Counted from the stretch's first letter, positions 35,137 to 59,385 are shown. The stretch is 64,000 bases of DNA from Bacteroidota bacterium (GCA_040387415.1 JAZKDU010000004.1:185231-249230); one strand, 5' to 3'. Numbers and translations are program-made. The notes: generated by a model from the sequence alone, not told the origin.

Positions 35137-35217
35137 ATTATGAAACCGCGCGCCAGGAATGAACAAACGCGATGCCGCGTTGCCTGTGTGTGGAAATCGT
35201 TTGTTCTTGAATTTTTG
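35137..35217 (+). repeat. copy A of an 81-bp conserved GC-rich palindromic intergenic element. It is the inverted partner of 59305..59385.
   Basis: attatgaaaccgcgcgccAGGAATGAACAAACGCGATGCCGCGTTGCCtgtgtgtggaaAATCGTTTGTTCTTGAATTTTTG. Contains the nested palindromes aacgcg-atgc-cgcgtt and gaacaaacg...cgtttgttc. About 90% identical to the reverse complement of copy B. Confidence 0.85.
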
Positions 35218-35454
35218 GTTCTTTTTTTTCAAGAAAAAAGAACAACGCCCAGTTTTGTTAATTGATGGTCATTTCGGATACATTTCGAAATCCATAGATG
35301 CTGAAATAAATTCAGCATCACACAGCCTCATTTGATACTTAAGGTACAGCGAAGTGGTTTTTATATAATTCTGCGTTTTACATCCAAATAACATAAAAAC
35401 GCATCAAAAATCTCAATTTTTAATGCGTTTTTGCGTTTTTTAATGAAATTAGGA

Positions 35455-37008
35455 TTATTTGGCCTTCATTCTGATGGCATGTGAAACTTCATACGATTCA
35501 TTACTCGCGTTAGGAGTAAAATCTTCCGTATAGGTTTCATAACCAGGGTTTTCTGCAGTAATTACGTAGTGTTTGCCTGGAGTTAGAATGAACAAGTACT
35601 TTCCTGTAGTCGCATTGGGCAGGTAAGTACCGATTAATTTTCCGGTTTCTTTTTCCGCAATGTTAATATTTACAGTCGTATAGTTATTTTGAGTCCCAGT
35701 GTTCTGCAGTACTACTCCACCTTTAACAAGCACGCTAACAGCATCTTGCGATTTATTTAAGAGTTCATATTGCTTTTTAAGAGCCTTTTGTGTTACATCA
35801 TCCGAAAAATCGCTGTCGAGGAAGGATGCTATTTCATTACGAAGTGCCTGAATATCATCTTGCGAAGAATTAGGATCATCAAACATCACCTCGATTTTTT
35901 TGAGCAGCTGCTGAAAAAGCAAATTATTCAATTTAGGATTGATTTGCGGAACATCGCTTTTTAAGCCCTGTTTTTTCATGCGCTCTTCCAGTTCCTTTAT
36001 TTTTTTCTCAGTTTCTCCTACCTGTGCCTGTAAATTGTCCAGTAACTCTTCATAATCAGCATTTCCCTGCTGTGCTGCAGGCACAGAATCAGTATAGTTT
36101 TTAGATTTTTTATTTTCGCCAAATTTAAAATTGATCATCAGTTCATGGCTGGTACCGGCATAAGTACCAATCGGTCCAATAATAAAGTCATAGGAGTAAC
36201 CCAGGTACAATTGTTTGTGAATACAGAATCCGGCATGAGCCGCTACAGCGTAACCGCTCTTATAGGTTGCTCCCAGCCAGAATTTATCTTTCCAATCCAC
36301 ATTAAGCGTTCCATCATATTGAAAAGGAGTATTCGGCACAAAACGAACCAAAGCCTGTGGCACAATGGAAATACCCTTGTCTTCCACAATGTAAAACCTG
36401 TATTTGGCGGTGGCCATATAATGACGAGCCATCGCATAGTAACCGCGTATGTTGGTGTTATCAACGTAATTGATCTTGTTTTGCAGTAGTTGCGGCACCG
36501 CAGCCCCAATCTCTAAGTTGTTCCATACAAAACCAATTCCGGCCGATCCGTCAAAGGTGGTTTTGCGCTGCAGATCAGTAAACAGGTTAGGGTCTGTATT
36601 GTTTTCAACAAGGGTTTTAGAGAAATCAAGCGTTTGGTTAATAATACCGGCAGATACTCCAAACAGCACATGCATATCGTTATTGATTGTAATCCGGTAG
36701 GAATAGGACAGATTGCCGGAAGTTCTGTTGGTAATCCCTTTTCTATCGCTGATAAGGCTAATGCCCAAACCCACTTTTTTTTCTACCAGGCTGCCATCCA
36801 GTGTAAGTATCGTCAGTTTTGGAGCTCCTTTAAAATCGGTCCATTGGTTGCGGTTGACCAGCATTGCATTTGTAGCCCCTTCCGAACCTGTAAAAGCCGG
36901 ATTATAGATCATCGGCTTATAAAAATAATGGCTATACATCCCTATTTGCTGGGCAGGAGCAATTAGTGCAGATAAAACAATGGATAATATGATAAGCCCT
37001 TTCTTCAT
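35455..37008 (-). CDS. PorP/SprF-family type IX secretion membrane protein with a long C-terminal extension (517 aa)
   Basis: N-terminus MKKGLIILSIVLSALIAPAQQIGMYSHYFYKPMIYNPAFTG...NRNQWTDFKGAP is the PorP/SprF family signature. About 200 extra C-terminal residues include a coiled-coil and Lys-rich segment and a beta-rich domain. Confidence 0.75.
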   Translation of the reverse strand: MKKGLIILSIVLSALIAPAQQIGMYSHYFYKPMIYNPAFTGSEGATNAMLVNRNQWTDFKGAPKLTILTLDGSLVEKKVGLGISLISDRKGITNRTSGNLSYSYRITINNDMHVLFGVSAGIINQTLDFSKTLVENNTDPNLFTDLQRKTTFDGSAGIGFVWNNLEIGAAVPQLLQNKINYVDNTNIRGYYAMARHYMATAKYRFYIVEDKGISIVPQALVRFVPNTPFQYDGTLNVDWKDKFWLGATYKSGYAVAAHAGFCIHKQLYLGYSYDFIIGPIGTYAGTSHELMINFKFGENKKSKNYTDSVPAAQQGNADYEELLDNLQAQVGETEKKIKELEERMKKQGLKSDVPQINPKLNNLLFQQLLKKIEVMFDDPNSSQDDIQALRNEIASFLDSDFSDDVTQKALKKQYELLNKSQDAVSVLVKGGVVLQNTGTQNNYTTVNINIAEKETGKLIGTYLPNATTGKYLFILTPGKHYVITAENPGYETYTEDFTPNASNESYEVSHAIRMKAK

Positions 37009-37232
37009 TCTTTTAAATAAACAGGTAGGCGGTGTAAAGCTTTAATATTCAGACTCAGCTAGCTATGCAATTTAATTCTCCAATTTACTTCTGGCCGTCC
37101 AGAGCGCTTTTCGCGATCGAAGCAAACTTTTTTTTGCTACTGTGAGATTGCTTCGCCCTATCTGCGAAGAGGGCTCGCAATTACGTTTTAATCAGCATTT
37201 ATTTAAATACCTTAAAATCGTCCCTTAAACGC

Positions 37233-38657
37233 TTATTCAATCAGCTTTAGCACCCAGGCATTACTGCTGTCCTTTGAATTCAATTCTTTAGCTTTTTCAA
37301 GCGCTTCCTCTTTTGTTTCTAGTTTTTCTGCAAAAACATAATTGTTTTGTTTGGATTGCGAATAGATCCAGTTGGCATTAGCGAAACCACGCTTGTTGTA
37401 ATTTTTAACCTCATCAATCGCAAAATCACGGTAAAAAAAGATCCCTACAATCACATAAAAACCTTTATCAGGCATAATATCCTTGTTGTTCTTAAAATCA
37501 CTTCTTTTGGTGATGAATATCCCTTCGCTGTCCTCTGTGCCTGGCTTGGTATTCTGAACAGGAGCTATTGCCTGGGTGGTGTTTTGTTTGTCCAGCTTAT
37601 CATTCAGTTCTTTGAGCTTTTCCTGGTTCTTTTTAAGCTGATTTTCAAGCTTATCAAATCGCTGCTCATACGCGGTGTTTTCCATCTCAGGAAGCGTATC
37701 TACAGGAGCGTTTGTAGATACGGAGGCACTTTTTCTGCCGAGTATTTTAAAGTTCACCATTATTTCGTGGCTCACACCGGCATATTTACCAATACTCCCG
37801 ATAATAAAATCATACGAATAGCCCAGATACAGCTGTTTGTGTACACAAAAACCAATATTTGCCGCTACCGCATAATTGCTTTTATAAGTGGCCCCCACCC
37901 AGCCTTTATCCTGCCAGTCGAGGTTAACAGCTACATCGTATTGCAGGGGAGCTTGCGGTACTATGCGGACCTGTGCAAATGGTTTTATCGAAATATCTTT
38001 ATCTTCTATAATAACAAATTTATAGTTTACAGATGCCATGTAATGCCGCTTTTGGCTGTAGTAGGCTTTTGCATCGCTGCTGTCTGCATAATCAACCGAT
38101 TTCACTTTGGTTTCAATCAATTGAGGAGCGGAAACACCTATATTTAAATCTTTCCAGGAAAACACCAACCCTGCATTTACGTCAAAAGTGGTTTTATGCT
38201 GATAGTCCGTGTACAAGGTTGGATCTGCGGCATTTTCAACTTGGGCCCTGGAAAAATCAATGGTTTGGTCAATAATACCGAAGGACGCTCCTAAGGATAA
38301 GCGCATATCCTCGTTTAATTTCAAATGGTAGGAATAATACATGTTTCCACCCATCCGGCTCATCAGGCCCTTTCTGTCGCTGATCAAACCCAAACCAACA
38401 CCCACTTTTTTATCCATCAAACTGCCATCAGCTGTAAAAATGGTTAATTGTGGCGCGCCTTTAAAACCTGTCCATTGCGAACGGCTGATCAGCATGGCAT
38501 TAGCAGCATCGTCAGTTCCGGTAAAAGCAGGGTTAAATACCAGTGGCTTGTAAAAACTATGGTTGTACATACCTACCTGTTGGGCAAAAGCCCCCTTCCA
38601 GCCTTCCCCGAAGAGAAGAAATAAAACAAAAGATAGTATGATTAACCTTTTTCTCAT
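37233..38657 (-). CDS. PorP/SprF-family type IX secretion membrane protein, tandem paralog with a C-terminal SPOR-like domain
   Basis: N-terminus ...AQQVGMYNHSFYKPLVFNPAFTGTDDAANAMLISRSQWTGFKGAP. About 45% identical to the downstream paralog over the core. The C-terminal about 90 aa (FYVIVGIFFYRDFAIDEV...NAWVLKL) are SPOR-like. Confidence 0.8.
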   Translation of the reverse strand: MRKRLIILSFVLFLLFGEGWKGAFAQQVGMYNHSFYKPLVFNPAFTGTDDAANAMLISRSQWTGFKGAPQLTIFTADGSLMDKKVGVGLGLISDRKGLMSRMGGNMYYSYHLKLNEDMRLSLGASFGIIDQTIDFSRAQVENAADPTLYTDYQHKTTFDVNAGLVFSWKDLNIGVSAPQLIETKVKSVDYADSSDAKAYYSQKRHYMASVNYKFVIIEDKDISIKPFAQVRIVPQAPLQYDVAVNLDWQDKGWVGATYKSNYAVAANIGFCVHKQLYLGYSYDFIIGSIGKYAGVSHEIMVNFKILGRKSASVSTNAPVDTLPEMENTAYEQRFDKLENQLKKNQEKLKELNDKLDKQNTTQAIAPVQNTKPGTEDSEGIFITKRSDFKNNKDIMPDKGFYVIVGIFFYRDFAIDEVKNYNKRGFANANWIYSQSKQNNYVFAEKLETKEEALEKAKELNSKDSSNAWVLKLIE

Positions 38658-38792
38658 CGTACTTGCGCAGATTTGAGATATGAGATTTGAGTATTGAGAT
38701 AATATAAATTGTAATTCGTTTCCATATAATTCATCTTGTTGTAGATCTGGGTATTAAAGGCTGTTCTCACGTCTCATATCCCACATCTAACT

Positions 38793-40166
38793 CTACTTAT
38801 TCTTCAAAATCTCCAGTGATCCCTTCACTACAATATCCGTTTCGTCAAAGCGAAGTACGTAAAAGTAGGTGCCATCAGGTAAATCAGAACCGTTGTATGT
38901 ACCGCTCCAATCGTTGGTATATCCTTTTTTGGTATATACCTGGTTGCCGTAAATGTTGTATATAAACACCTCATTATCAGGGTAGCTTAAGATGTCTTGT
39001 ATGTACCAGGTATCGTTAATACCGTCTCCGTTAGGGGTAAACAGGTTAGAAACCATTCCATTAAATTCCAGTACAAAAATGGTGATCAGCACACTGTCAG
39101 TAGTAACGCAGGAATTATTATCCGTTACAGTAATGGTATACTGCGTGGTGACTAAGGGGGTGGCCAAAGGGTTAAAAATAGTAGCAGTGTCAAGTCCTGT
39201 TGCGGGTGTCCATACAGCGGTTCCATTCCCTGTTCCCATCAAGGAAAGGGAAGTTCCCTGCACCACCGTAGTGTCAGCAATTGTACTTATTGGATTAGGG
39301 ATTATGGATAAAATAGCCGGAGTGGAAGTATCGCTGGGACAGGCACCGTTTTGTACAATTGCCTGGTACCATGTGGTTTGCGTTAGCCCGCTGTAGGTTT
39401 GGAATGTGGTATCATTGGTAATCGGAGTCCATAAAATACTGTCCGTTGACGATAGCCAGCTTTGCACATCTCCAAGCTCTCCCGTTAAATTGAGCGTGCC
39501 GCTATTGATACCGGTACATACGGTATCTGTGCCGGAAACCATGCCTGCAACTGATACGGAATCGTAAGTGAAAGAAGCGATGGAAGAAGTATCCGAAGGG
39601 CAGGTAGCACCGCTTTGCACAATGGCTCTGTAATAGGTGTTTTGAGTAAGATTAGCGTGGTTGAGTGTATGGTTGGTATCCGATATCGTATTCCAGGTTC
39701 CCCCGGGAATAGAATCCTGCCAAAAAAGTACACTTCCTGTATCAGCTACCAGCGTGAGCACTCCCGTTCCTGTTCCTGGTGTAATGCAAAAAACTCCTCC
39801 TCCGGTAATAGTTCCCCCTATGCTTGGTGGATAAATATCAATGCAGGACGTAGAGGATGCAGCTTCAGGGAAAGCGCCATCTTTAACAATGGCTCTGTAA
39901 CAGGTGGATTGCGGAAGGTTTGTATAGCTAACTGAGGGTGAAATGTTAAAGAGGGGTAACCAATTGCTGCCTCCATCTGTTGAATAGTCCCAACGTATAA
40001 TTGCACCATTACTTGTAGTCGTATCTAAATTTATAAAGCCGGAATTAGCATTAGCACAGTATATTGCTGCACCAGAGGTAAATCCACCAATAGATTGCGC
40101 CTGAACTTTTCCAAACGTTAAACAGATAATTATAAAAAACAGAAGTTTTTTGGAAAAACACTTCAT
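38793..40166 (-). CDS. secreted Ig-like repeat protein with a T9SS type-B (gliding-motility) C-terminal domain, cognate-cargo candidate for the adjacent PorP/SprF. Start trimmed to MKCFSKKLLFF.
   Basis: Signal peptide MKCFSKKLLFFIIICLTFGKVQAQ. Internal ~85-aa repeats (...TYYRAIV..GA.P.D.S...). C-terminus NLFTPNGDGINDTWYIQDI...IYNIYGNQVY...WSG.YNG...PDGTYFYVLRF matches type-B CTD. Confidence 0.75.
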   Translation of the reverse strand: MKCFSKKLLFFIIICLTFGKVQAQSIGGFTSGAAIYCANANSGFINLDTTTSNGAIIRWDYSTDGGSNWLPLFNISPSVSYTNLPQSTCYRAIVKDGAFPEAASSTSCIDIYPPSIGGTITGGGVFCITPGTGTGVLTLVADTGSVLFWQDSIPGGTWNTISDTNHTLNHANLTQNTYYRAIVQSGATCPSDTSSIASFTYDSVSVAGMVSGTDTVCTGINSGTLNLTGELGDVQSWLSSTDSILWTPITNDTTFQTYSGLTQTTWYQAIVQNGACPSDTSTPAILSIIPNPISTIADTTVVQGTSLSLMGTGNGTAVWTPATGLDTATIFNPLATPLVTTQYTITVTDNNSCVTTDSVLITIFVLEFNGMVSNLFTPNGDGINDTWYIQDILSYPDNEVFIYNIYGNQVYTKKGYTNDWSGTYNGSDLPDGTYFYVLRFDETDIVVKGSLEILKNK

Positions 40167-40531
40167 AAACAAGTCAGTTAAATATATCGAAGCCATGCTT
40201 CAATCGCAAAACTATAAAAAAATCCGGTTTTTTTAGTGTTATAATTGCCCGATCTTCAAAAATAACAGCAACAATGAGCAAACACTCTCAAACCTAAACG
40301 AATTTTGTCAATATTAGTTCGGAAATAGAATGTTTTAATGAGAAAGGAATAAGGCTCTGTTTTATTGGCAGTAAGGGGTTTTTTTGCAAAAAAATCCGGT
40401 TATCGTTCTCGTAATTGGCAGAATAGATCAGAAACAGCTTAGAAAAAGGAAAAATCAGCTATTTTGAAAGGATTTTAAGTGTTTTTAGTTCAAAAAACCT
40501 CTTAAACGGTGTTATAAAACTATTTTTTGCT

Positions 40532-41233
40532 TTAAAAGATCCCAGCAATGCCAAAATTCGGGTAAAAACGATTGTCGTAATGCACTACACTGGTTTCGAG
40601 GTAAAGGTGGCGATAACGCATTCCTAATGATACGATAGGGCTGTATACCTTTAAATTGGTACTATAAGCCCGGGTGGTATATTTTTTAATTTCGATATTG
40701 GTATAACTGTAACGCGGGGTAAGGATCAGCATAAAATCTTTATTGAACTTATAGGAAATTGGTATAAAAAAATCTGCATTGTATGCGAGCTTGGATTCAA
40801 CACTTACAGCGGTTTGATTTCCAAAAATGCGTATTGAATCCCGGGCTGTTACAAAGCCAAGATCTACCCCAATAGCGGCATTGAATTTAGAGGTACGATC
40901 GAAAAATCCATACTGAGTTCCGGCACGCAGTCCAAAACCTCCGATAAACCCCGGCAAATGACCGGCAATTCTTACATTCATGTGTTCACCCAAACCTATT
41001 TGGCCGCCAAAGGACAAAATGGGCGCAGCTTCAATTTTATTGGAAAAATTTATCTTTTTATCTGCTGAAATAGAATCAATTTTTGGTTTCAATCCGGTTC
41101 CCAGGCCCACATAAGCTTTTCCTTTCCCTTTTATCATGGGAGTAGGATCATTTACATACAAATTGTTAGTGACCATGCAGGATGATAAAAATCCAAAAAC
41201 TGATAAAAGAAAAATGATGCTTTTAAGTTTCAT
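40532..41233 (-). CDS. putative outer-membrane beta-barrel lipoprotein, hypothetical
   Basis: Lipoprotein-type signal FLSSC. Alternating amphipathic beta-strand pattern and a C-terminal aromatic residue (...GIAGIF). Confidence 0.45.
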   Translation of the reverse strand: MKLKSIIFLLSVFGFLSSCMVTNNLYVNDPTPMIKGKGKAYVGLGTGLKPKIDSISADKKINFSNKIEAAPILSFGGQIGLGEHMNVRIAGHLPGFIGGFGLRAGTQYGFFDRTSKFNAAIGVDLGFVTARDSIRIFGNQTAVSVESKLAYNADFFIPISYKFNKDFMLILTPRYSYTNIEIKKYTTRAYSTNLKVYSPIVSLGMRYRHLYLETSVVHYDNRFYPNFGIAGIF

Positions 41234-41271
41234 AAAAGGTATTTATTTGATTTTCGGTTTAAAAATAGAAG

Positions 41272-41318
41272 CAAAAAGCCGTTTCAATACGATATTGAAA
41301 ACGGCTTTTTTGTTTTTC
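41272..41318 (-). terminator. long hairpin with a flanking T/A run between the FadL-like gene and the small outer-membrane protein gene
   Basis: aaagccgtttcaata-cga-tattgaaaacggcttt (15-16 bp stem), followed by ttttgttttt on + and preceded by its complement on -. Confidence 0.5.
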
Positions 41319-41325
41319 GAACCAA

Positions 41326-42768
41326 CTAGAATTTGGTGCCCAGGGTCAGCATAAAGCTTGAATTTCTATAATTGTTCTTTACAGAAGAAACATAGGAAGG
41401 ATCATACAAATAATTATATTCTGTATACTGGGTAAGCACATAAGCGAAATCAATAAAATAATTGTTTTCTCTGAACCCTACACCAAGCGTATAGCTTGAT
41501 CTGTTTGCATTCACATTTTCGTCATTTTTGAATGGGCTGCCATATAAGGCATAACCTGCTCTGAAGCTGAATGGATCAAATCGTACTTCACCACCTACTC
41601 TTAAGTTTCCGGCTGAGGTGTATTTTGAACGTATTGTTCTGTTTACAGGTGAAAACACATTAGGGCTTGAATTCAGCTGAGCGTAGGTATAATCCACATA
41701 TTCATAATCCACATTCAATAAAGCTATTTTCCCAATTACAAACCCTAAACTTCCTATTGCTCTAAACGGAGTAGTGATACGGTAGTCGAAAGATCCTTTC
41801 GGAGATATAGTATCGTAGCTTACACCTTCCAGATCCGATTTCATGGAACTGGAGTATTTATCGTTAAAACCAATGCTGGTAGGTGTATGCACAGCAGCTC
41901 CTATTCTCAACCATTCCGTTGGTTTTACGATGGCACCAAATTTCATGTTTACTCCGCTTCCTTTTGCAGTAAGATCCTGCGTGTAGGTAAAGGATTTGAA
42001 GTTTGAAATGGAGTCATTTGCGTCTATTTCCTCATAAACGGATTCCTCCACATATCTTGCATTTACAAAGCCGATGGTAGCTCCTACAAATAGCTTATTA
42101 CGATAGTTTCCGCCAAAGCTTACTACTGTTTCACCCATAGAACCTCTTGTTTCCACCGATTTGCGCTGCTGCTGGCCATAACCCGCCACCACGTGATTAT
42201 ACAGGTTTGTTCCATTGGTATCCGGATTAATCAGATACGTTTCCCAGGCTAAACCGGTCGAAAACTGGTCGAAGCTGGAGGGGGCATTTCCATTTGCGCT
42301 GGCAACATAGGTATCAAGCAGAGAGCTTGTTGCATTATCGCCCTCTACGCTCATCCGGTTATGGAAATTATTTGTTCTGTTGTAACCAAGTCCGAAATTT
42401 ACTGTTTCCCAGCCTCTTGTACTTTTGTCACCTCTGTTCCAGGTAGCGACCAAACCGATGTTCCCGAAATTGAAATTCAGCTTTCTGTCGCTGGATTCTA
42501 TGCTATTAAAAGTAGATGTTGTGCTTTGCGAAAAAATGGAAGGTGTTATGGAAATTTCGTTTTTACGAAACACCCCTATACCAGCCGGATTAAAGCTCAG
42601 TGTTGAAATATCACCACCCAAAGCGCCCATAGAGCCTGCCATAGAAGCGAAACGTGCTGTACCGCCAAAGGTTAATTGTGAGTAACGCATTGCGTCAATA
42701 TCATTTTGAGCGGTTATTGTAAGGGCATAAAGCAACCCTGTCCCTATTAGTAAGGCTTGTTTTTTCAT
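41326..42768 (-). CDS. FadL/OmpP1/TodX-family outer-membrane transport protein. Start trimmed to MKKQALLIG; the ORF track gives ..43053.
   Basis: Signal peptide MKKQALLIGTGLLYALTITAQ. The N-terminal hatch motif SQLTFGGTARFASMAGSMGALGGDISTLSFNPAGIG resembles the FadL-family G.G.A..G.AA..DD.S...NPA consensus. C-terminal F (...LGTKF). The 95-aa upstream extension overlaps the preceding gene and was rejected. Confidence 0.55.
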   Translation of the reverse strand: MKKQALLIGTGLLYALTITAQNDIDAMRYSQLTFGGTARFASMAGSMGALGGDISTLSFNPAGIGVFRKNEISITPSIFSQSTTSTFNSIESSDRKLNFNFGNIGLVATWNRGDKSTRGWETVNFGLGYNRTNNFHNRMSVEGDNATSSLLDTYVASANGNAPSSFDQFSTGLAWETYLINPDTNGTNLYNHVVAGYGQQQRKSVETRGSMGETVVSFGGNYRNKLFVGATIGFVNARYVEESVYEEIDANDSISNFKSFTYTQDLTAKGSGVNMKFGAIVKPTEWLRIGAAVHTPTSIGFNDKYSSSMKSDLEGVSYDTISPKGSFDYRITTPFRAIGSLGFVIGKIALLNVDYEYVDYTYAQLNSSPNVFSPVNRTIRSKYTSAGNLRVGGEVRFDPFSFRAGYALYGSPFKNDENVNANRSSYTLGVGFRENNYFIDFAYVLTQYTEYNYLYDPSYVSSVKNNYRNSSFMLTLGTKF

Positions 42769-42847
42769 ATGTATGGTTTTTATGAATTTTTGATAAAGCG
42801 TGCATTCAGAAATACTGGTTTTAATATCATCTGAATGCACACAAAAT

Positions 42848-44395
42848 TTATCTTCTTGGTCCTGATCCGTTATTTGAATTGCTCCTTTGAGGAGGTGCGC
42901 TTTGAGAAGGTGCCTGTTGAGGTGCACTGTTTCTTTGTTCCATTCTAGGCTGTTCATTGCGCGGCTGCTCATTTCTAGGGGCTGCCTGCTCGCGTTTAGG
43001 CTGTTGCTGCTCTTGTTTAGGTTGTTGTTCGTATTTAGGCTGCTGCGACTCACGTTTCGGCTGTTGTTGTTGTTGTTGTTGTTGTCTGTTTTGGTCGTAG
43101 TTTGGTTGTTGTTGCTTTACCGGTTGTTCAGTACGGGTTCTAACATCATTACTAGGCTTTGATTCTCCCGGTTTTGTTGTTGTATTCACTGGTCTGTCAT
43201 AAGCAGGCGCATTCTCTCTTGGCTTAGCTGTATTAGTATTGTTAAGCGGAGCAGGTCTGTTATTTTCTTTTGAATCAAACTTTTCCGTACCATTATTTTC
43301 TCTTGGTTTAGCAGTATTGTTGTTAAGCGGAGCAGGTCTGTTATTTTCTTTTGAATCAAACTTAGTTTCCGAACCGTTGTTTCTTGCAGGGTTACCACGT
43401 TCTGCAGGGCTTGAAGTGTTTTCCGGTCTTGCTTTTACATCGTTTTCACGCGATATATACGGGTTGTTGGTTCTTCCTTTGGTTGCTTCAAAAGGCTGTT
43501 TTGTTTCAGTTTCAACCGCTCTAATGTATTTGTGAGCTAATGTAGGCTGCGCAGTAGTACGTCCGTTTGAAGCAGTTGTACCTCTTGGACCATAATAGTA
43601 GCTGTTGTTATCATAGCTGTTAAAATAATTATTTGAATTTGCATCATAATACCCGTTGTTGTAACCATTCATATATCCCTGGTTATAAGCGTTTCCGTAA
43701 CCGTTCATGTAGGGGTTATATCCATAATAGCTGGAACCATAATAACCTCCGCCATATCCACCATACGGATTATAACTGTATGGAGTGTAAAAAGGATCGT
43801 ATCCCCAACCCTGGTTAGCATACCAGTACGAAGTAGGGTTATACGTAAATGTGGTATACGTTGGTCCCCAGAAATTGTATCCCATATAAACGCTTGTTCC
43901 GTAAGTATACGGGTTACCAGTATACCAGTAGGAGTTGGTGTAATAGTTATCGTAATAACCATACGAACCAACGTTGTTATGGAAACGTCTTAAACGTACT
44001 GAATATTCATCATCATAATAATCGTTATAGTCAAATGGCTGATCATAATAATTATTGGTAGTGTTGTTTATAGTAGTACCGTTACCATCAGTAGTCGTCT
44101 GGGTAGTGGTGGTAGACCTTGTTTCACTAGGCGTATAATAATCGTCCCCCGTAGTGGTTGTTTGTGACGATTGGTTTTTAGCCTGCTCCTGTCTTTGTCT
44201 TTCCTGTTCCGCTAATTGTTGTTGCCTTTCCTGTTCAGCCGCTAATCTGCGTTTTTCTTTATCTGCAGCAGCATCACTGGATGTATAATAAACATCATCA
44301 CTATACGTTTTGGATGTTGTAGTTCCCTGCTGCGATTTACATGATACCGATAACAAAGAAGTTGCAACTGCTAATGTGATTAAGGCCGTTTTCAT
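42848..44395 (-). CDS. extremely low-complexity lipoprotein: a Tyr/Gly/Asn-rich (about 35% Tyr) central domain followed by a Gln/Pro/Glu-rich repeat tail
   Basis: Lipoprotein signal MKTALITLAVATSLLSVSC. A coiled ERQQQLAEQERQRQEQ segment. About 150 aa of ...YGYYDNYYTNSYWYTGNPYTYG...YGGYGGGYYGSSYYGYNPYMNGYGNAYNQGY... A 2x 28-aa repeat E.KFDSKENNRPAPLNN.NTAKPREN. A QQQQQQQQ run and a PKxEQQ repeat tail. Confidence 0.6.
   Translation of the reverse strand: MKTALITLAVATSLLSVSCKSQQGTTTSKTYSDDVYYTSSDAAADKEKRRLAAEQERQQQLAEQERQRQEQAKNQSSQTTTTGDDYYTPSETRSTTTTQTTTDGNGTTINNTTNNYYDQPFDYNDYYDDEYSVRLRRFHNNVGSYGYYDNYYTNSYWYTGNPYTYGTSVYMGYNFWGPTYTTFTYNPTSYWYANQGWGYDPFYTPYSYNPYGGYGGGYYGSSYYGYNPYMNGYGNAYNQGYMNGYNNGYYDANSNNYFNSYDNNSYYYGPRGTTASNGRTTAQPTLAHKYIRAVETETKQPFEATKGRTNNPYISRENDVKARPENTSSPAERGNPARNNGSETKFDSKENNRPAPLNNNTAKPRENNGTEKFDSKENNRPAPLNNTNTAKPRENAPAYDRPVNTTTKPGESKPSNDVRTRTEQPVKQQQPNYDQNRQQQQQQQQPKRESQQPKYEQQPKQEQQQPKREQAAPRNEQPRNEQPRMEQRNSAPQQAPSQSAPPQRSNSNNGSGPRR
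43217..43385. repeat. 2x 84-bp direct tandem repeat (coding) plus an adjacent (TTG)7/(CAA)7 microsatellite at 43064..43084
   Basis: tcttggyttagcwgtattrktrttgttaagcggagcaggtctgttattttcttttgaatcaaactt is repeated with few mismatches. ttgttgttgttgttgttgttg encodes polyQ on the minus strand. Confidence 0.75.
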
Positions 44396-44514
44396 TGTGT
44401 TGTATTTTTAGTTTCTTTTAATTTGACAAATACTTCGGCAAAAGGTTTAATTTTTTACTTTTGTTGTATAAGTCAAACGTAAAATTACAAATACTATACC
44501 ACAAATTAAAAAGT

Positions 44515-46855: not shown

Positions 46856-46882
46856 TTTTTTTAAGAATTTTGTTAAAAAAAT

Positions 46883-50165: not shown

Positions 50166-50176
50166 AGCTGTCAGCC

Positions 50177-53100: not shown

Positions 53101-53443
53101 ACACCTCCGTCAGCACATTATTAGCGCGTTTACGGATAACAGTATCATCTAATTGCTGGTGGGCATTTAATTTTAGATGCTTTTTTAATTCTAGAAGTAA
53201 TGTTTTTGTACCACTGGAAATCTGCGTATAGTCTTCTAGTGACAGTTCTTTAAGCGATTTAATAATCCGCTCTTTCATTTCAGAAGCGGCCTTATTTGTA
53301 AAAGTAACGGCAAGAATATGGCGGTAGGCTCTTGGCGGGTCAGATCCATCATTCAATGCCAAAGCCAGGTATTCCTTTACGAGTGTAAAGGTTTTTCCTG
53401 AACCGGCAGAAGATTTATAGATAGTGAAATTTTTATCTGACAT
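50177..53443 (-). CDS. AddA/RecB-type UvrD-family helicase with a C-terminal PD-(D/E)XK nuclease (1088 aa)
   Basis: Walker A SSAGSGKTFTLV at the N-terminus and UvrD/Rep helicase motifs (FTNKAA..M, VDEFQDT, GD.KQAIYRWRG, ...TIHRSKGLEF). A C-terminal nuclease motif ...IIDYKTGEEK (RecB-family D-Y-K). Confidence 0.8.
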   Translation of the reverse strand: MSDKNFTIYKSSAGSGKTFTLVKEYLALALNDGSDPPRAYRHILAVTFTNKAASEMKERIIKSLKELSLEDYTQISSGTKTLLLELKKHLKLNAHQQLDDTVIRKRANNVLTEVLHNYSDFAIGTIDSFVHKIVRTFAFDLKIPMSFDLEMDDDKLLTQAIDLLIAQIGTDERLTKALVEFTESKTDDEKSWHIENDLKYFAKNLLNEDGAVYIEKLRHLSVDDFFKIKDTIQTEIKKFETFIKKQGQDALKIISDSGVENEKFAGGANGISKYFSYLAEFRFDKLTPSNTVQKNIDSDNWYAGKATIGDKGSIDAIKLPLTRLFNEAQEYMQLNQSEITLFRLINTTIYSLAVLNEIEKLLNEYKAQNNILHISEFNKLIAKIVLNEPIPFIYERLGEKYNNYLIDEFQDTSVLQFQNLLPLIDNSLATGHFTMLVGDGKQAIYRWRGGEVEQFAMLPGVFAHNNNPLVLEREQALKRNHNPQVLDKNYRSKREIIEFNNAIFRTLSNKLNDKFKGIYETLEQGFNPDNTGGYVQVEFLDGEKDELREQNLERTYSIVQNLLQQNFQLRDIAVLVRKNTDGSEIANYLSSRGIEVISSDSLLLSNSADVNFIYSILRYLNNTSDEIIQAEILEYLVVSKRINEHINNKDKNRTSPTANGNSEININQLLVESKQDFISVIKHVCSDFSSSALSKMALYELCEELIRLFKLNIIPNAYIQFFLDEVLNYSIKQNNNLNDFIEYWEDKKDRASLIVPQGMNAVTIMTIHRSKGLEFPVVILPFSNGKVKNGKEHLWVDLENEKIPQMPSALVSVSESLMDTPYASLYEEEKSKSFLDSLNVLYVALTRPEERLYILTGKPSRSTDKLGTTSDMFAHYYQMNGEWQEGKTLYAFGTETIHKQHTQKAETTNLKLETFNSNQWRDNIKMRAAAPSIWNLENTERKKEYGVMVHTALSKIKSAEDVDTALHSMFAQGMITADEKDKLLIVIHKIIALPKLQPHFAPGLTIKNEAEIIALTGEKFRLDRVVLNSPLQKGPGELTAIIIDYKTGEEKPAHKKQILQYADLLNQMGYSVTEKLIVYIEEERVLEC

Positions 53444-53651
53444 TGACTTACTAATAACGATTACGAATGACGAATCAGTACGAATTTACAAAATGTGATG
53501 ACGCAATTCGGTTCCACCGGAAATTGTTTTGAACAGTAAAAAATGAATAACTAAAAGGGAGAGATCTTTCAATAAAAATGAACAGTTGTATAAAATATTC
53601 AGTTTTTTTTCGTATATTCGTAATGGTTACGCTAATAATTGTCATCTGATC

Positions 53652-55334
53652 ATGAAAACGTTTACTTTTTATGTTGTTATTTTATTAACATTTGCCTGCA
53701 ATTTAATCCATGCCCAGGAAACAAATATTGTTCCCGGTAATTTATTGGTAATGTTGCGTTCTGAGGCAGATGTCCAAAAAATTTCTACTGAATTGCAATC
53801 TGTAGACGGAGTGCAAACCGGCTTGAAAGCCAGTCGTGTATTGTCCTCGTCAATGCTCATCTATTTATTTGAATTTGATTTTACGGCTGTTAATCAATAT
53901 AAGATGCTTGAAGCTGTAAAGCGAAATAAAGCAGTGAAAATTGCGCAGTTCAATCATACGTTTGAGGATCGCATATTACCCAATGACGCACAGTTTTCAG
54001 CCATGTGGGGAATGAACAATACGGGACAGAATGGAGGTTTACCTTCCGCTGATATTCAAGCTTCGGAGGCATGGGATATTACAACGGGTGGATACACTAC
54101 GGATAATGATACTATTGTGGTTGCTGTAATTGATGGCGGGTTTGACCTAAATCAGCAGGATCTTAATTTTTGGAAAAACTACCATGAAATACCTAACAAT
54201 AATATTGATGATGATAACAATGGTTATTTAGATGATTATGATGGCTGGAATGGCGCAACGGATAATGATTATATACCTGTTTCAAGTCACGGTACTCACG
54301 TTTCGGGAACTGTTGGTGCGAAAGGAAATAATGGGATAGGGGTTACCGGTGTAAACTGGAATGTGAAGGTAATGGCCGTTTCTTATGGCTCTTCGGGTGG
54401 AGGTTTTGAGTCAAATGTGGTTGCTTCTTATGCTTTTGTATTAGACCAGCGAAAAAAATATAACCAAACGAATGGTGCCGAAGGTGCTTTTGTTGTTTCT
54501 ACCAATTCTTCGTTTGGTGTGAACAATGGGCAGCCGACATCTTACCCGCTGTGGTGCGCAATGTATGATTCACTTGGTGCTGCCGGGATTTTGAGCGCGG
54601 GTGCTACTGCTAATGCCAACCTAAATGTAGATGTGCAGGGGGATATCCCTACGGCATGTGCCAGCGACTGGCTGATTACAGTAACCAATACAACCAATAC
54701 CGATGCAAAAAACGGCAGTTGCGGCTATGGCGCTACCAGCATTGATTTGGGTGCTCCCGGAACAAATATCACGTCTACTTATCCTTCCAATTCGTATTCC
54801 TCTATTTCTGGAACATCAATGGCTACGCCACATGTAGCAGGTGCTGTTGCGCTGATGTATTCGGTGTTATGTTCTCAGTTTATTGCCGATTACAAGGCCG
54901 ATCCGGCTGGGATAGCTTTGTTAGTAAAAGATTCATTGTTAGGTGCAGTAGATGTGATCCCCTCTATGAGCAATGGAATTACTGTTACTGGCGGAAGATT
55001 GAATTTATATAAAGCAGTAAAATCCATCCAGAATTACTGTGGCACGGTTTCAATACCTGCTATTGATAAAACAGAATCCGTATTTGGTATCACCGCTATT
55101 TATCCTAATCCGGCTTCCGGTTCGTTTATTATCGCATATAATAATGACTTGCAGGCCGATCTGATTATTACCAATGTGCTCGGACAGCAGGTAAAACGAA
55201 TCAAAGAAAAGGATACTTCCAAAGGCATCCATCATAACAGTGTCGATTTGAGTGATGTTGGCTCAGGGGTATATTTTATTAGCCTTGAAACAAAGGATAA
55301 AAAGTCGAATGTTATAAAAGTGATTTTATATTAG
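53652..55334 (+). CDS. subtilisin-like S8 serine peptidase with a T9SS type-A C-terminal sorting domain. Start trimmed to MKTFTFYVV.
   Basis: Catalytic triad motifs VAVIDGGFD, HGTHVSGTVGA and GTSMATPHVAGAVAL. Signal peptide MKTFTFYVVILLTFACNLIHAQ. The CTD is ...AIYPNPASGSFII...GVYFISLETKDKKSNVIKVILY. Confidence 0.85.
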   Translation: MKTFTFYVVILLTFACNLIHAQETNIVPGNLLVMLRSEADVQKISTELQSVDGVQTGLKASRVLSSSMLIYLFEFDFTAVNQYKMLEAVKRNKAVKIAQFNHTFEDRILPNDAQFSAMWGMNNTGQNGGLPSADIQASEAWDITTGGYTTDNDTIVVAVIDGGFDLNQQDLNFWKNYHEIPNNNIDDDNNGYLDDYDGWNGATDNDYIPVSSHGTHVSGTVGAKGNNGIGVTGVNWNVKVMAVSYGSSGGGFESNVVASYAFVLDQRKKYNQTNGAEGAFVVSTNSSFGVNNGQPTSYPLWCAMYDSLGAAGILSAGATANANLNVDVQGDIPTACASDWLITVTNTTNTDAKNGSCGYGATSIDLGAPGTNITSTYPSNSYSSISGTSMATPHVAGAVALMYSVLCSQFIADYKADPAGIALLVKDSLLGAVDVIPSMSNGITVTGGRLNLYKAVKSIQNYCGTVSIPAIDKTESVFGITAIYPNPASGSFIIAYNNDLQADLIITNVLGQQVKRIKEKDTSKGIHHNSVDLSDVGSGVYFISLETKDKKSNVIKVILY

Positions 55335-55603
55335 AACGCAATTAATCTACTCTTCTCTAGATTGAGTTTTCCCTATTAAATTTCCCTTTAGTTTAACTGC
55401 CCATCCGCTTAAAAATGTTTAATTCAAGCTGTTTTGGAGCGGAAATTCAAGCCTTCTAATTAAGTTGAGTTATTTTCAATGCGGTTTTTAAAAAGGTCTT
55501 TATTGTTACATAATTACCGCTTTTCGCTCTTAAGATCAACAATCCCCCCTTATTTTGAAAATTTATTGTACTTTTGTGCCCTAAAACAAAACCAAAATCA
55601 AAA

Positions 55604-58600
55604 ATGAAAAAAATATTACTTACTTTATTTTCTGCAGCTGCTCTTTTTAATATTGCGAATGCTCAGGTTAGTATATACTCATTTGCGCAAACAGCAGGTA
55701 CATACACACCTATAACAACAGGTACTTCGGTGGCTACAGGAATTCAGGATGACAGTGTAATTTCTGCAAAACCAATAGGGTTTACTTTTAATTACAATGG
55801 TACAAACTATACACAATTTGGTCTAAATATTAATGGTTGGATCAGTCTTGGCACAACAACTCCTTCAAGCAGTTATGTTCCGGTTAGCGGTGGCACAACA
55901 AACAATATCATCTCCGCATTAGGAAGAGATTTAAAACTTGGATATACGGCTCCGGGAAGTACTACAAGTGGCAGTAACACTATTACAATGGCTGCCGGTG
56001 CTACAACAGGCTTTTATCCAAGCGATGTTCTTCTTACAGCAACTAACTTTCCGGCAGGAACAGTTGTAACGGCTGTTGGAGCTACAACCTTAACGGTATC
56101 TAACCCGGCAACAGCCACCGGCTCAACCGGAACGTATACAGTTGCAGGAAACATTCAATATTTAACTTCCGGTACTGCTCCAAACAGAACATGTGTTATT
56201 CAATGGACGCGCGCACGCAGATATAGCAGCTCTGCTATTGATCAGAAAGATTTATTTAATTTCCAGATCCGTCTTCAGGAAACTACCAATGTAATTTCCA
56301 TTGTTTATGGTTTATTTCAAACAAACACTACTTCAAGCGTATATCAGATAGGTCTTCGCGGAGCGTCAGCAACCGATTTTAATAACAGAAAAACAACTAC
56401 TAACTGGGCCTCAACAACTGCGGGAACTGTTAATACCGATACAGTTTCTCTTTCAACAACGGTTAAACCAACTTCTGGACAAACCTACGCATGGACACCG
56501 GCACCATCTTGTACCGGAACTCCAACAGCGGGTACAGCAGCGGCTTCTGCTAGTGCAGTTTGCAGTGGAGTAAGCTTCACACTTTCATTAACAGGATATA
56601 CTACAGGGGTTTCAAATATTGCTATTCAGTGGCAATCATCCCCCGCTTCAGGAGGAACTTATACAAGTATTTCCGGTGCTACATCTGCAACCTATTCTGC
56701 CACACAAACAGCTACTACTTATTATAAGGCACTTGTAAGCTGCAACGGTGGTACAGGGGTAGCATCAAATATTGTGGCTGTAACAATGAGCGCGGCATCT
56801 GGTTGTTATTGTACACCAGTGCATTCTTCTGCTTGCAGTACAACAAATCATATTGACAGTGTAGTAATAGTAGGTACCACTCTTTCAAATTTAAACACTA
56901 ATTGTGCAGGAACAAGCGGCCCGTCTTATACTGCTTATCCTTCAACAGGAAGCACTACTGCCACTTTAAACGCAGCTTCTGCCTACACCTTTAAAATTGG
57001 TACAAACGCAAGTAATATTATCTCTGTTTGGATTGATTACAATCAGAATGGTGTGTATGAAGCCAGCGAATGGACACAGGTGGCTACAAATTCAGTTGCC
57101 AATGTAACTAATACTGTTTCTGTTACTATACCATCTAGTGCTACTGCAGGTCTTACAGGAATGAGAATAAGAAGCCGTAGCACAGGAAATCCTAATGGCA
57201 GCGGTGATGCTTGTACAGATTTCGGAAGTGGTGAAACAGAAGATTACAAAGTAACAATTGTAGCTGCAAGTCCATGCAGCGGAGCACCAACTGCCGGAAC
57301 AGCGTCAGGGCCATCAGGTGTGTGCAGCGGAATTGCTTTTAATCTTGTATTAACTGGGTATACTACAGGTGTTTCCGGCATTACTATTCAATGGCAATCA
57401 TCCTCTGCATTAGGAGGGACATATACAAATATTTCGGGAGCAACTACACCAACCTATTCTGCTACGCAAACAGCAACCACTTATTATAAGGCACTTGTAA
57501 CCTGCAGTGGTGGTGCGCCAACAGCATCAAACATTGTAACGGTGACTCAGAACGCAGCATCAGCATGTTATTGTACACCACCGTCAACAAGCTGTACATT
57601 AAATGATGTGATTACAAATGTCACAATATCAACTATCAATAATACAACAACCTGTGGTACTGCAGGCTATGCATCCTTTACTACTCCAACAGCAACCTTA
57701 AATCAGGCTCAAAGCTATCCTGTTTCTGTAACTGTAGGAACAGGAGGAACAGAACATGTTGCTATCTGGATCGACTATAACCAAAACGGTATTTTTGAAA
57801 CATCGGAATTTAATTCAGTTGGAAGTGGGAACGGCACAGCAGTAACTTCAAGTATTCTGATTCCGCCAAATGCAACAGTAGGTGCTACCAGAATGCGTGT
57901 GAGATTAAGATATAGTGTGGCATTAACCGGTGCTGATGCTTGTATTGCATATACCTACGGTGAAACAGAAGATTATGCCATAACAATTGGTGCCGGAACA
58001 GCATGTACAGGTACGCCAACTGCAGGTACAGCATCCGTTTCCAGCGATTCTGTTTGTCTTCAGGAAAACTATACACTTATGTTAACTGGGTATACTCCTG
58101 GGGTTGCAGGTCTTACTTTTCAATGGCAGTCATCTTCTACCTTAGGTGGTACATATACTGATATAACTGGCGCTACATCTGTAAGTTATACAACCACACA
58201 AACGGCTACTACTTATTATAAAGTTTCCGTAAAATGTAATGGTGGTACTGCAGTTTATTCAAATGTGGTGACTGTAATATTAAACCCTCTTTTAACGTGC
58301 TATTGCAAACCGGTTCATTCCACTGCTTGCAGTTTAACTAACAATATTGACAGCGTACGTATAGTTGGTACAACACTTGCAAACCTGCATACTGGATGTA
58401 CGTCAACAACTGCAATGGCATACACTTCATATCCTGCTACAGGAACTACTACTGCTTCGTTAACAGCAGGATCTACTTATGTGTTGAAGGTTACAACTAC
58501 CGCAGTGAATATTATCTCTGTGTGGATTGATTATAACCGCAATGGTACTTATGATACTACTGAATGGTACCAGGTGAGTGCAAGTTCATTGGCTAATGCG

Positions 58601-59038
58601 GTTAATTCACTTTCTTTTACAGTTCCATCAACTACTACTGCTGGAATTATTGGAATGAGAATAAGAAGCCGCTCTGTTGGAAGTGCTAATGGGAATGTTG
58701 ATGCCTGCACAAATTTTGGATCAGGGGAAACAGAAGATTATTTAGTGACGATCATATCTACTGTTGGAATTGAAGAAAACGAAGTACTGAACAGTGTTTT
58801 AGTTTACCCGAATCCTACTGCTGGTTTATTCAATGTTGTAATAAATAATGCAAACTTTAACCAGGTAACTATCAGCGTAATAGATATACAAGGAAAAGAA
58901 GTGTATAACGTTTCAGAAAAAAATAACTCAGCTACTTATAGTAAACAGATTAACCTGGAAGGCTTATCTAAAGGACTTTATTATATTAAACTAAACACGG
59001 AAAATGGTGTTAAAGTTCAGAAGTTGATTATTCAGTAA
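55604..59038 (+). CDS. secreted protein with 3 tandem ~255-aa repeats each ending in a GEVED-type motif (GSGETEDY), plus a T9SS type-A CTD. Start trimmed to MKKILLTLF.
   Basis: Signal peptide MKKILLTLFSAAALFNIANAQ. Repeats begin ...C.G.PTAGTA...CSG..F.L.LTGYT.GV..I.IQWQSS...GGTYT.I.GAT...YS.TQTATTYYKA.V.C.GG and end ...MRIRSRS.G..NG..DAC..FGSGETEDY. The CTD LVYPNPTAGLFNVVINNANFNQVTISVIDIQGKEVYN...KGLYYIKLNTENGVKVQKLIIQ is closely related to that of the beta-helix protein. Confidence 0.7.
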   Translation: MKKILLTLFSAAALFNIANAQVSIYSFAQTAGTYTPITTGTSVATGIQDDSVISAKPIGFTFNYNGTNYTQFGLNINGWISLGTTTPSSSYVPVSGGTTNNIISALGRDLKLGYTAPGSTTSGSNTITMAAGATTGFYPSDVLLTATNFPAGTVVTAVGATTLTVSNPATATGSTGTYTVAGNIQYLTSGTAPNRTCVIQWTRARRYSSSAIDQKDLFNFQIRLQETTNVISIVYGLFQTNTTSSVYQIGLRGASATDFNNRKTTTNWASTTAGTVNTDTVSLSTTVKPTSGQTYAWTPAPSCTGTPTAGTAAASASAVCSGVSFTLSLTGYTTGVSNIAIQWQSSPASGGTYTSISGATSATYSATQTATTYYKALVSCNGGTGVASNIVAVTMSAASGCYCTPVHSSACSTTNHIDSVVIVGTTLSNLNTNCAGTSGPSYTAYPSTGSTTATLNAASAYTFKIGTNASNIISVWIDYNQNGVYEASEWTQVATNSVANVTNTVSVTIPSSATAGLTGMRIRSRSTGNPNGSGDACTDFGSGETEDYKVTIVAASPCSGAPTAGTASGPSGVCSGIAFNLVLTGYTTGVSGITIQWQSSSALGGTYTNISGATTPTYSATQTATTYYKALVTCSGGAPTASNIVTVTQNAASACYCTPPSTSCTLNDVITNVTISTINNTTTCGTAGYASFTTPTATLNQAQSYPVSVTVGTGGTEHVAIWIDYNQNGIFETSEFNSVGSGNGTAVTSSILIPPNATVGATRMRVRLRYSVALTGADACIAYTYGETEDYAITIGAGTACTGTPTAGTASVSSDSVCLQENYTLMLTGYTPGVAGLTFQWQSSSTLGGTYTDITGATSVSYTTTQTATTYYKVSVKCNGGTAVYSNVVTVILNPLLTCYCKPVHSTACSLTNNIDSVRIVGTTLANLHTGCTSTTAMAYTSYPATGTTTASLTAGSTYVLKVTTTAVNIISVWIDYNRNGTYDTTEWYQVSASSLANAVNSLSFTVPSTTTAGIIGMRIRSRSVGSANGNVDACTNFGSGETEDYLVTIISTVGIEENEVLNSVLVYPNPTAGLFNVVINNANFNQVTISVIDIQGKEVYNVSEKNNSATYSKQINLEGLSKGLYYIKLNTENGVKVQKLIIQ
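56495..58785 (+). repeat. 3x ~765-nt coding tandem repeat within the GEVED-repeat cargo gene
   Basis: The protein repeats are about 60-70% identical to each other (see the CDS evidence). Confidence 0.7.
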
Positions 59039-59061
59039 TATTACCAGTTAAACTAGTTTTG

Positions 59062-59102
59062 AACATCTCCGATCGGTAAAACGGTCGGAGATGTTTATTT
59101 TG
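59062..59102 (+). terminator. rho-independent terminator after the GEVED-repeat gene
   Basis: catctccgatcg-gtaaaa-cggtcggagatg (about 11-bp stem), followed by tttatttt. Confidence 0.7.
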
Positions 59103-59304
59103 GATGGGTTAGGAGGGGTGTAGGCGCTGAAACAGGTTCAGCATGACAAATGAGGGATATTGCTTAACCTAGCTTTGTGTTTTAATTTCCCGAACACAAT
59201 TGTTTTAAGGCGTTCTGACATAAATTAAAGAACTGTGTATTTTCTTTTTGCTTGAACAGGGTAAATGTTCGGTGAACATTTGAGCCGGTTGGTGTGTCAG
59301 CAAG

Positions 59305-59385
59305 CAAAAATTCAAGAACAAACGATTACTCCACACGGGCAACGCGGCATCGCGTTTGTTCATTCCTAACGCGCGTTTTCATAAT
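59305..59385 (-). repeat. copy B of the 81-bp conserved GC-rich palindromic intergenic element. Inverted relative to copy A at 35137..35217.
   Basis: The reverse complement reads attatgaaaacgcgcgttAGGAATGAACAAACGCGATGCCGCGTTGCCcgtgtggagtAATCGTTTGTTCTTGAATTTTTG. It lies in a 776-bp gene-free gap. Confidence 0.85.

Follow-up and report, generated by a model that had tools for sequence, protein, structure and literature searches.

A probable family of MITE-like repeats in uncultured Bacteroidota, sharing a hairpin and U-tract core

MITEs (miniature inverted-repeat transposable elements) with transcription-active hairpins are known from bacteria as the Correia/NEMIS elements of Neisseria, the ERIC/IRU elements of enterobacteria and RUP of Streptococcus pneumoniae. 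Here, we describe a repeat present as two inverted copies, A and B, 24 kb apart in a 64,000-nucleotide stretch of DNA from a Bacteroidota bacterium (GCA_040387415.1 JAZKDU010000004.1:185231-249230), referred to below as the window. On balance, both sequences probably belong to a non-autonomous family of dispersed, MITE-like repeats in uncultured Bacteroidota that has a hairpin and U-tract core at gene 3′ ends. The family was previously uncatalogued, is of the bacterial MITE kind and belongs to a poorly sampled Bacteroidota lineage. Like the bacterial MITEs, the unit is small, non-coding, intergenic and multi-copy, has internal secondary structure, lies in gene-flanking, presumably transcribed DNA and occurs in states from decayed to intact. 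Terminal inverted repeats (TIRs) and short target-site duplications (TSDs) were demonstrated in one lineage, found on long contigs of a lake metagenome (the lake lineage). Unlike the named bacterial MITEs, to which it has no sequence similarity, the element has a core that is better conserved than its termini and occurs on at least two outer sequences, and no partner transposase was found in the loci and window open reading frames (ORFs) tested.

Insertion sequences of the IS5 family generate 3-bp duplications, and the related eukaryotic PIF/Harbinger-Tourist MITEs generate 3-bp TWA duplications. Compared with what is generally known of these elements, the lake lineage is similar in having short TIRs and a 3-bp TSD that is almost always TAA or TTA. 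It differs from the IS5 family in that no IS5-type or other transposase with matching ends was found in the same material, and two long copies (L015 and L021) seem, by eye, to have 8-bp direct repeats at their flanks instead. The invertons of Bacteroides consist of short inverted repeats flanking a promoter, with a site-specific recombinase nearby; they typically span a few hundred bp, and both orientations occur. The window copies are likewise inverted repeats in a Bacteroidota genome, but they are placed 24 kb apart around housekeeping genes, with no recombinase among the ORFs tested and a gene order collinear with that of relatives. The Flavo-1 RNA (Rfam RF01705) resembles the element in being a structured intergenic motif of Bacteroidota/Flavobacteria and shares two contigs with it, but sequence and structure are unrelated, and the element itself has no RF01705 match. 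On these contigs, Flavo-1 exceeded the gathering threshold at L012 859-928 (-) and at L002 335-421 (-) and 4646-4727 (-); the L012 match is found shortly before a gene start, ~40 nt downstream of hairpin 2 of the element.

Repetitive extragenic palindromic (REP) sequences are 20-40 bp long, carry a GTAG or CGTC tag, make no target duplication and are accompanied in the genome by a gene for a REP-associated tyrosine transposase (RAYT) (PMC3733652). An earlier, sequence-only reading of the window had offered a REP-like role as one of three, and it came nearest: like REP/BIME elements and REPINs, which RAYT transposases mobilize, the family consists of abundant, dispersed extragenic palindromic repeats, often at gene 3′ ends, where an effect of REPs on termination or mRNA stability has been proposed. 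What defines true REPs is nevertheless missing: the unit is 150-260 bp or longer, has no tag at the foot of its main helix P1 (AAT followed by GAACAAACG) and makes TSDs in the lake lineage, and there is no RAYT, HUH or Y1 gene in the window. Two further papers report MITEs from Porphyromonas gingivalis (PMC4596501) and Cardinium (PMC9769881) as well.

A dispersed family with mobile-element termini

The core was found at more than 100 intergenic places in public Bacteroidota metagenome-assembled genomes (MAGs) and metagenomes. An exact-pattern scan of one genome per species located it in two Bacteroidota MAG loci, one with three tandem copies, and a looser pattern in which the P1 arms alone were fixed gave 62 metagenome loci, ~40 of them on long contigs of the one lake metagenome. 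Because the P1 arms were fixed in these scans, the apparent invariance of the arms is partly a matter of ascertainment. Three loci (L052, L064 and L065) were discarded as chance matches to the search pattern. A profile built from the pattern matches added 27 diverged copies in the same loci. In the lake lineage, 32 extra copies were found in 390 kb around the seeding copies, which suggests a copy number on the order of 10^2 or more per genome, a very rough figure because the sequence flanks known copies.

The element has also entered the databases as protein. A search with the translated conserved ATG frame recovered 43 clusters, a lower bound, annotated as “hypothetical protein” (33-101 aa, MKTRVRNEQTRCRVAGGEESFVLDFLFLLYQDKRK...) that are translations of the element, some of them in NCBI MAGs such as GCA_947482065.1. 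Gene callers have thus misannotated the element as small proteins at least 43 times, and it would be advisable to mask it in screens for small RNAs and riboswitches. The core had only chance matches in viral contigs and literature text, its sequence being without a match in the literature text searched, and a plasmid collection yielded a single marginal match of 37 nt in an unrelated Fusobacteria plasmid. When the window and 20 loci were scanned with Rfam 15 at gathering thresholds, no family was found for the element, and the window match was a tRNA only; scans in E-value mode of both window copies and one long copy gave chance hairpin matches only.

In the window organism, two copies are visible in the 64 kb. 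Short-read Logan contigs from SRR26324620 are 100% identical to the window and end inside copy A (L077, ~35213) and copy B (L078, ~59338), so the element breaks short-read assemblies. The contig break beside the second hairpin (H2) of copy A cannot stem from copy B, which hints at further copies in this sample.

The lake-lineage element has sharp borders. It starts with G-TAAAGCTTTCAAAATAATTTCGAC and finishes with ...GGATTTATTTCGAAAACTTCAC (in short form, GTAAAGCTTTC.../...GAAAACTTCAC), and its TIRs are ~26 bp long (GTAAAGCTTTCAAAATAA... and ...TTATTTCGAAAACTTCAC); when GTAAAGCTTTCAAAATAATTTCGAC is set against the reverse complement, GTGAAGTTTTCGAAATAAATCCG, ~22 of 28 positions match by our own count. 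The copies are 236-238 bp long, or 261-264 bp with a 25-29-nt module in the second hairpin. In 27 of 45 distinct copies, the left and right flanking 3 bp agree, and they are nearly always TAA or TTA (TWA). When left and right flanks were re-paired at random, the mean number of matches was 12.6 and the maximum 23, none of the 20,000 permutations reaching 27 (p < 5e-5). The matching flanks in the lake lineage are a TSD. Together, the TIRs and the 3-bp TWA TSD therefore point to cut-and-paste mobilization by a transposase acting in trans.

Unit lengths in the family range over 145-290 bp, with a long form of ~450-550 bp, in keeping with the size of MITEs, which stay below ~600 bp. In other lineages, the same core is located behind a ~250-nt upstream module with its own hairpins, which is absent from the window. 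The long copies end in clear TIRs, ACTGTTCGAAAC and GTTTCGAACAGT, which are different from the lake ends but related to them. The core accordingly occurs on at least two different outer “chassis” and is more conserved between lineages than the termini. Core-only tandem arrays with a 138-bp period occur as well, and 5′-truncated remnants and copies with one-sided, stem-breaking decay mutations are present in the family.

A ~29-nt module, GGAGCCTGYCCTGAGCTTTTGCCGAAGGG, occupies hairpin 2 in about half of the lake copies (e.g., L004 from ~9507). Two copies (L059 and, at 12052-12140 (-), one in L004) contain part of it twice, and its reverse complement is found in another, upstream hairpin loop of the long copy L026, from another metagenome (alignment A8, columns ~160-195). 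The module resembles a small nested insertion aimed at hairpin loops. By eye, the long copies L015 and L021 seem to be flanked by 8-bp direct repeats (TCCACCyC and TAGAAACT) instead of the 3-bp TWA, and the TIRs of L060 are much longer, at 40 bp or more. Different transposases may serve different subfamilies, or another element may enclose some of the copies.

The window copies and their helices

Much of what the sequence-only reading had said of the two copies was borne out. Copy A lies at 35137-35217 (+) and copy B at 59305-59385 (-), and the two align without gaps over 81 nt with seven mismatches (91% identity), sharing exact blocks of 30 nt (AGGAATGAACAAACGCGATGCCGCGTTGCC) and 23 nt (AATCGTTTGTTCTTGAATTTTTG). 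The nested palindromes are present, in copy A as GAACAAACG/CGTTTGTTC at 35161-35169/35198-35206 and AACGCG-N4-CGCGTT at 35166-35181, and the non-coding gaps of 428 bp (copy A) and 776 bp (copy B) agree with the ORF map. Two occurrences of the core 24-mer in the window compare with an expectation of 0.00 from 100 shuffles. A covariance model run without filters on the window scored 126.9 bits for copy A (35136-35249) and 93.7 bits for copy B (59279-59386). There was no third copy in the 64 kb, the next match having 19 bits, and an nhmmer profile hidden Markov model concurred.

The extent of 81 bp had to be revised, while the repeat itself is real. Similarity between the copies begins ~12 nt upstream of the earlier start and resumes beyond the earlier end, giving units of ~145-180 nt at ~35125-35268 (+) and ~59397-59219 (-). 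The A/T-rich hairpin at 35218-35243, previously described as following the element, falls within the unit; it recurs in copy B, where an insertion of 44 nt divides it, and a short box, CAG...TTAATT, lies downstream of the hairpin in both copies. The modules are located as follows.

35125..35268 (+): copy A unit, made up of 5′ box, P1 with conserved loop, U-tract with P2, H2 and CAG...TTAATT box, from alignment with copy B and the family
35138..35160 (+): 5′ box of copy A, TTATGAAACCGCGCGCCAGGAAT (family consensus TTATGAAAACGCGCGTGAGGAAT), conserved across lineages
35161..35206 (+): helix P1 of copy A, arms GAACAAACG at 35161-35169 and CGTTTGTTC at 35198-35206, 28-nt loop with the blocks CGATG, GTTGC and GTG.GGAG.AAT
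35207..35217 (+): TTGAA and TTTTTG of copy A, the 5′ strand of P2 and the U-tract, right after P1; TTGAA pairs with TTCAA at 35228-35232
35218..35243 (+): hairpin H2 of copy A, GTTCTTTTTT - TTCAAG - AAAAAAGAAC, a perfect 10-bp inverted repeat whose arms covary between lineages
35084..35300 (+): possible full extent of copy A; by eye, the flanks are faintly like the lake MITE termini (ATAAGCT...GTTCGA on the left, ATTTCGAAATCC on the right)
59219..59397 (-): copy B unit, modules as in copy A plus the insertion in H2
59316..59361 (-): helix P1 of copy B, arms at 59361-59353 and 59324-59316, 28-nt loop
59245..59315 (-): TTGAA, U-tract and split H2 of copy B, H2 arms TTTTTGCTTG at 59310-59301 and CAAGCAAAAA at 59254-59245, TTCAAG loop at 59256-59251
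59257..59300 (-): 44-nt insertion in H2 of copy B, ...GGCTCA, then the hairpin AAATGTTC-ACC-GAACATTT, then ACCCTG

In an inverted-repeat scan, the H2 arms of copy B were 10 nt long, 100% complementary and 46 nt apart, and P2 of copy A extended to a 12-nt pairing of 35200-35211 with 35228-35239. The insertion module of copy B is found at the same place in copy 1 of L001 and in L035, with GGCTCA, a perfect hairpin and CCCTG as constant parts; the sequence of the hairpin is wholly different in the three, and self-complementary in each. A small 5′ hairpin, CUUAUG/CGUGAG, which makes use of G-U pairs, is present in most lineages and weak in the window copies. Two further small hairpins, similar to each other, GATGCTGAA-ATAA-ATTCAGCATC and GCTGAAC-CTG-TTTCAGC, lie 55 nt downstream of copy A (35298-35319 (+)) and 103 nt downstream of copy B (59126-59142 (-)), respectively, and were not found in other family members.

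Compensatory changes were observed in three helices, P1, P2 and H2. In the L053 subfamily, the P1 arms GAACAAACG/CGTTTGTTC are replaced by GAAAGCATA/TATGCTTTC between flanks that are otherwise homologous, which amounts to five double changes. The H2 arms differ from lineage to lineage and stay complementary (GTTCTTTTTT/AAAAAAGAAC, TCTTTTGT/ACAAAAGA and TCTTTTTG/CAAAAAGA). In P2, the pentamer after P1 pairs with the H2 loop as either TTGAA/TTCAA or TTGAT/ATCAA, with concordance in all 20 of the 20 representatives; of the close relatives L040 and L063, each has a different version. In a mini-alignment in register, anchored on the helices and with P1 arms set by the search pattern, 98.1% of cells were paired and 10 of 22 pairs had changed on both sides, a result matched by none of 500 shuffles; only 48-59% of cells paired when the partners were slid by 1-3 columns. 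(The L017 row of the module alignment was disregarded.) A further hairpin of ~26 bp, in which five pairs are compensatory, occurs in the long copies. P2 and H2 overlap without a linker, so that their full formation is mutually exclusive, and in copy A, P2 also competes with P1. The 28-nt P1 loop is conserved in sequence and not in pairing.

Two other candidate pairings were rejected. The inner AACGCG/CGCGTT hairpin is restricted to certain lineages and is not a conserved feature of the family. A pairing between the 5′ box and the P1 loop, CGCGCG/UGUGUG, fits the window, L003, L018 and L060 and fails in the lake type, L013, L016 and L019.

All copies are intergenic. Among 105 de-duplicated copies, the upstream gene was co-directional in 67 and opposite in 25 (p = 1.4e-5); between genes on the same strand, 35 copies were sense and 11 antisense (p = 5e-4), and there were 20 copies in convergent and 10 in divergent gaps. 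The sequence-only reading had noted that each window copy lies downstream of a cargo gene of the type IX secretion system (T9SS). This holds in the sense orientation for copy A, but copy B is antisense to its cargo gene and has a lipocalin-like gene as its own upstream neighbor. Nor is the association a property of the family: the 73 upstream neighbor proteins represent 119 Pfam families, and because Por_Secre_tail is found in only 5 of the 73, there is no link to T9SS cargo genes. As regards position, then, the element is essentially the abundant, generic repeat that the same reading had set against its own hypothesis, with unrelated neighbors, except that it does have a preferred orientation. 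This bias is consistent with a role in termination, of which it is no proof. An intrinsic (Rho-independent) terminator is a stable, G+C-rich hairpin that has a short loop and a U-tract right behind it; P1 has 9 bp, of which three are G-C pairs, and a 28-nt loop and is followed by UUGAAUUUUUG, and helix H2 is almost purely A-U.

Weighing the explanations

In the mobile-repeat model that we favor, the shared core of ~150-170 nt would consist of the 5′ box, the 9-bp P1 around its 28-nt loop, the U-tract and the A/U-rich H2, and the WUCAAG loop of H2 could pair alternatively with the CUUGAW after P1 to form P2. Copies would settle and be kept between genes, for the most part in sense after a gene's 3′ end, and to judge by this position, the core would be transcribed within the 3′ end of the upstream gene. 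The hairpins and U-tracts may then serve as a terminator-like or 3′-end-protecting module, making the sense orientation tolerated or useful; such a role would explain the orientation bias. With this, the family is defined by its termini, target duplication, modules and three covarying helices, and offers a test case of a mobile hairpin and U-tract repeat inserted in sense behind genes, in a phylum with poorly charted terminators and small RNAs.

Several observations weigh against this model. The window copies have no clear TIR or TSD: there is a weak resemblance to the TIRs around TTCGA, the inverted-repeat scan gave no convincing terminal pair, and the borders are too degenerate for a TSD to be read. 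No autonomous element bounded by the TIRs was found in ~600 kb of loci, which cover the carrier genomes in part only, and there was no transposase, with matching ends or otherwise, among the top 25 of the 119 upstream-neighbor Pfam families or the window ORFs tested. For a MITE, it is unusual that the core is better conserved than the termini and occurs on at least two chassis, which hints that the core has a function of its own. We infer the terminator role from position; P1 has only three G-C pairs and a 28-nt loop, a simple terminator scan called neither P1 nor H2 on the sense strand, and folding z-scores were modest and did not separate the strands. Lastly, there is the ascertainment of the P1 arms in the exact-pattern scans, as noted above.

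The conservation of the core leaves room for a different, somewhat doubtful view, in which it is a functional structured RNA module kept by selection across lineages, with a conserved loop and mutually exclusive helices that resemble a conformational switch, and carried by at least two chassis (the 236-bp MITE and the 450-550-bp form with its 26-bp covarying long hairpin). If so, it would be either an element-encoded RNA needed for mobilization or a 3′-end regulatory RNA recruited by the host, and in both cases a new RNA class absent from Rfam.

Somewhat doubtful, too, is the possibility that the core is a small structured RNA gene of ~150-170 nt with its own promoter, which multiplied and, in certain lineages, was taken up by a mobile chassis, and whose product is a trans-acting regulatory or protein-binding RNA or is required by the element. 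A small structured RNA was another of the roles proposed from the sequence, and the three covarying helices, together with the sequence-conserved 28-nt loop, agree with it. So do the mutual exclusion of P2 and H2, as in a conformational switch, the core-only tandem arrays at 138-bp period and the conservation of the core on different outer sequences. Also in its favor, the 5′ hairpin and several H2 variants make G-U pairs that work on the sense strand only. A gene of this kind should have a primary 5′ end ~5-10 nt upstream of AAACGCGCG. Promoters of the Bacteroidota type have the consensus TTTG ... TAnnTTTG, but by-eye inspection of both strands of the printed sequences, which was no formal scan, revealed no consistent match to TTTG/TAnnTTTG and none at a fixed upstream distance. 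Furthermore, many copies per genome are truncated or have disruptive one-sided mutations, no Rfam family matches, the modest folding z-scores are alike on both strands, and the preferred orientation suggests that copies are transcribed together with the upstream gene.

We think it improbable that the element acts as duplex DNA, its inverted repeats (GAACAAACG-N28-CGTTTGTTC and CTTGAW-N16-WTCAAG) binding, as REP/BIME sequences do, a dimeric protein (for instance a transposase, a nucleoid-associated protein or a regulator). The half-sites are symmetrical and at a fixed spacing, both change together in the L053 subfamily, and the CCACGAAA motif recurs in direct and inverted orientation in the long copies. 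However, the compensatory changes preserve Watson-Crick complementarity and not a shared recognition sequence, and different arms coexist on one contig. Most single changes in H2 are compatible with G-U pairing on one strand, a palindromic DNA site would not be expected to be strongly biased in its orientation to transcription, and the REP hallmarks (20-40 bp, GTAG/CGTC tag and RAYT gene) are missing.

The third role proposed from the sequence was that of recombination sites that could invert the intervening 24-kb segment. Such a role, whether through a programmed switch or homologous recombination, is very unlikely. Homologous recombination is physically possible between inverted copies that are 91% identical and share exact blocks of 30 and 23 nt. 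Against this, the repeat is generic, with many copies that lie in either orientation at loci unrelated to each other, no recombinase, invertase, integrase or transposase was found among the window ORFs tested, and the segment holds the housekeeping genes proS, rpsT, a tRNA, radC and a UvrD-like helicase. The closest PorP homologs in public data are at most 65% identical. In the relatives L079/L080, the genes CHU_C-PorP-PorP-(65 nt)-Epimerase_2-DUF7033-...-UPRTase-HAD follow each other on one strand. Read from ~40.2 kb down to 28.0 kb, the window matches this order, the sole difference being that a cargo gene (33410-35026) and copy A are interposed, and inside the segment the order proS ... CHU_C-PorP-PorP agrees with that of L081. 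The element is absent from the 15-kb stretches of these relatives (L079/L080 and L081) and from the orthologous PorP/epimerase junction. Collinearity with element-free relatives therefore places junction A in its ancestral configuration. The only other assembly of the organism, from SRR26324620, is identical to the window; its contigs break at the repeats and show no alternative junction. In the window assembly, then, no inversion of the 35.2-59.3 kb segment is seen, and the best reading is that the 24-kb spacing and inverted orientation of the copies are incidental, which removes the story of an invertible segment tied to T9SS cargo.

That the element encodes a small protein from the conserved ATG AAA (MK[TP]R.RNEQTRCRVA...SFVLEF...) can be ruled out, although most copies have an open, ATG-initiated reading frame of 26-60 codons and 43 “proteins” are annotated, since copy B has an in-frame TAA at codon 19 and yet is identical to copy A over the next 23 nt, insertions of 25 and 44 nt and changes in T-run length shift the frame, variation is not concentrated at third codon positions, and none of the 43 translations has a recorded Pfam domain.

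Genes around the window copies

Both window copies are located in convergent gene gaps and are sense to their own upstream gene. The genes on either side are listed below.

33410-35026 (+): left of copy A, Por_Secre_tail protein with CARDB, P_proprotein and Por_Secre_tail domains
35455-37008 (-): right of copy A, PorP/SprF (ORF map and domain search)
55574-59038 (+): left of copy B, GEVED/Por_Secre_tail protein (ORF map and domain search)
59815-60246 (-): right of copy B, lipocalin-like gene (ORF map)

Copy A alone thus follows a T9SS cargo gene in sense orientation; relative to the GEVED/Por_Secre_tail gene, copy B is antisense, and it is sense downstream of the lipocalin-like gene. The 24-kb segment contains two PorP/SprF genes, proS, a tRNA gene, rpsT, radC and a gene for a UvrD-like helicase, in line with the gene content given for it earlier. 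The cargo gene at 33410-35026 is absent from the PorP/Epimerase_2 junction of L079/L080, where the gap is 65 nt, and this gene and copy A are lineage-specific additions to an otherwise syntenic block.

An exact protein look-up of ProS from the window returned no record, probably due to a difference in start codon. The window ORFs 41326-43053 (-) and 42848-44395 (-) overlap by ~200 nt on the same strand, most likely because the GTG start at 43053, which was chosen mechanically, is too early; their counterparts in L081 do not overlap. Three huge ORFs take up most of the first 28 kb of the window, at 1248-10883 (+) (3211 aa), 11145-19193 (+) (2682 aa) and 21434-27916 (-) (2160 aa).

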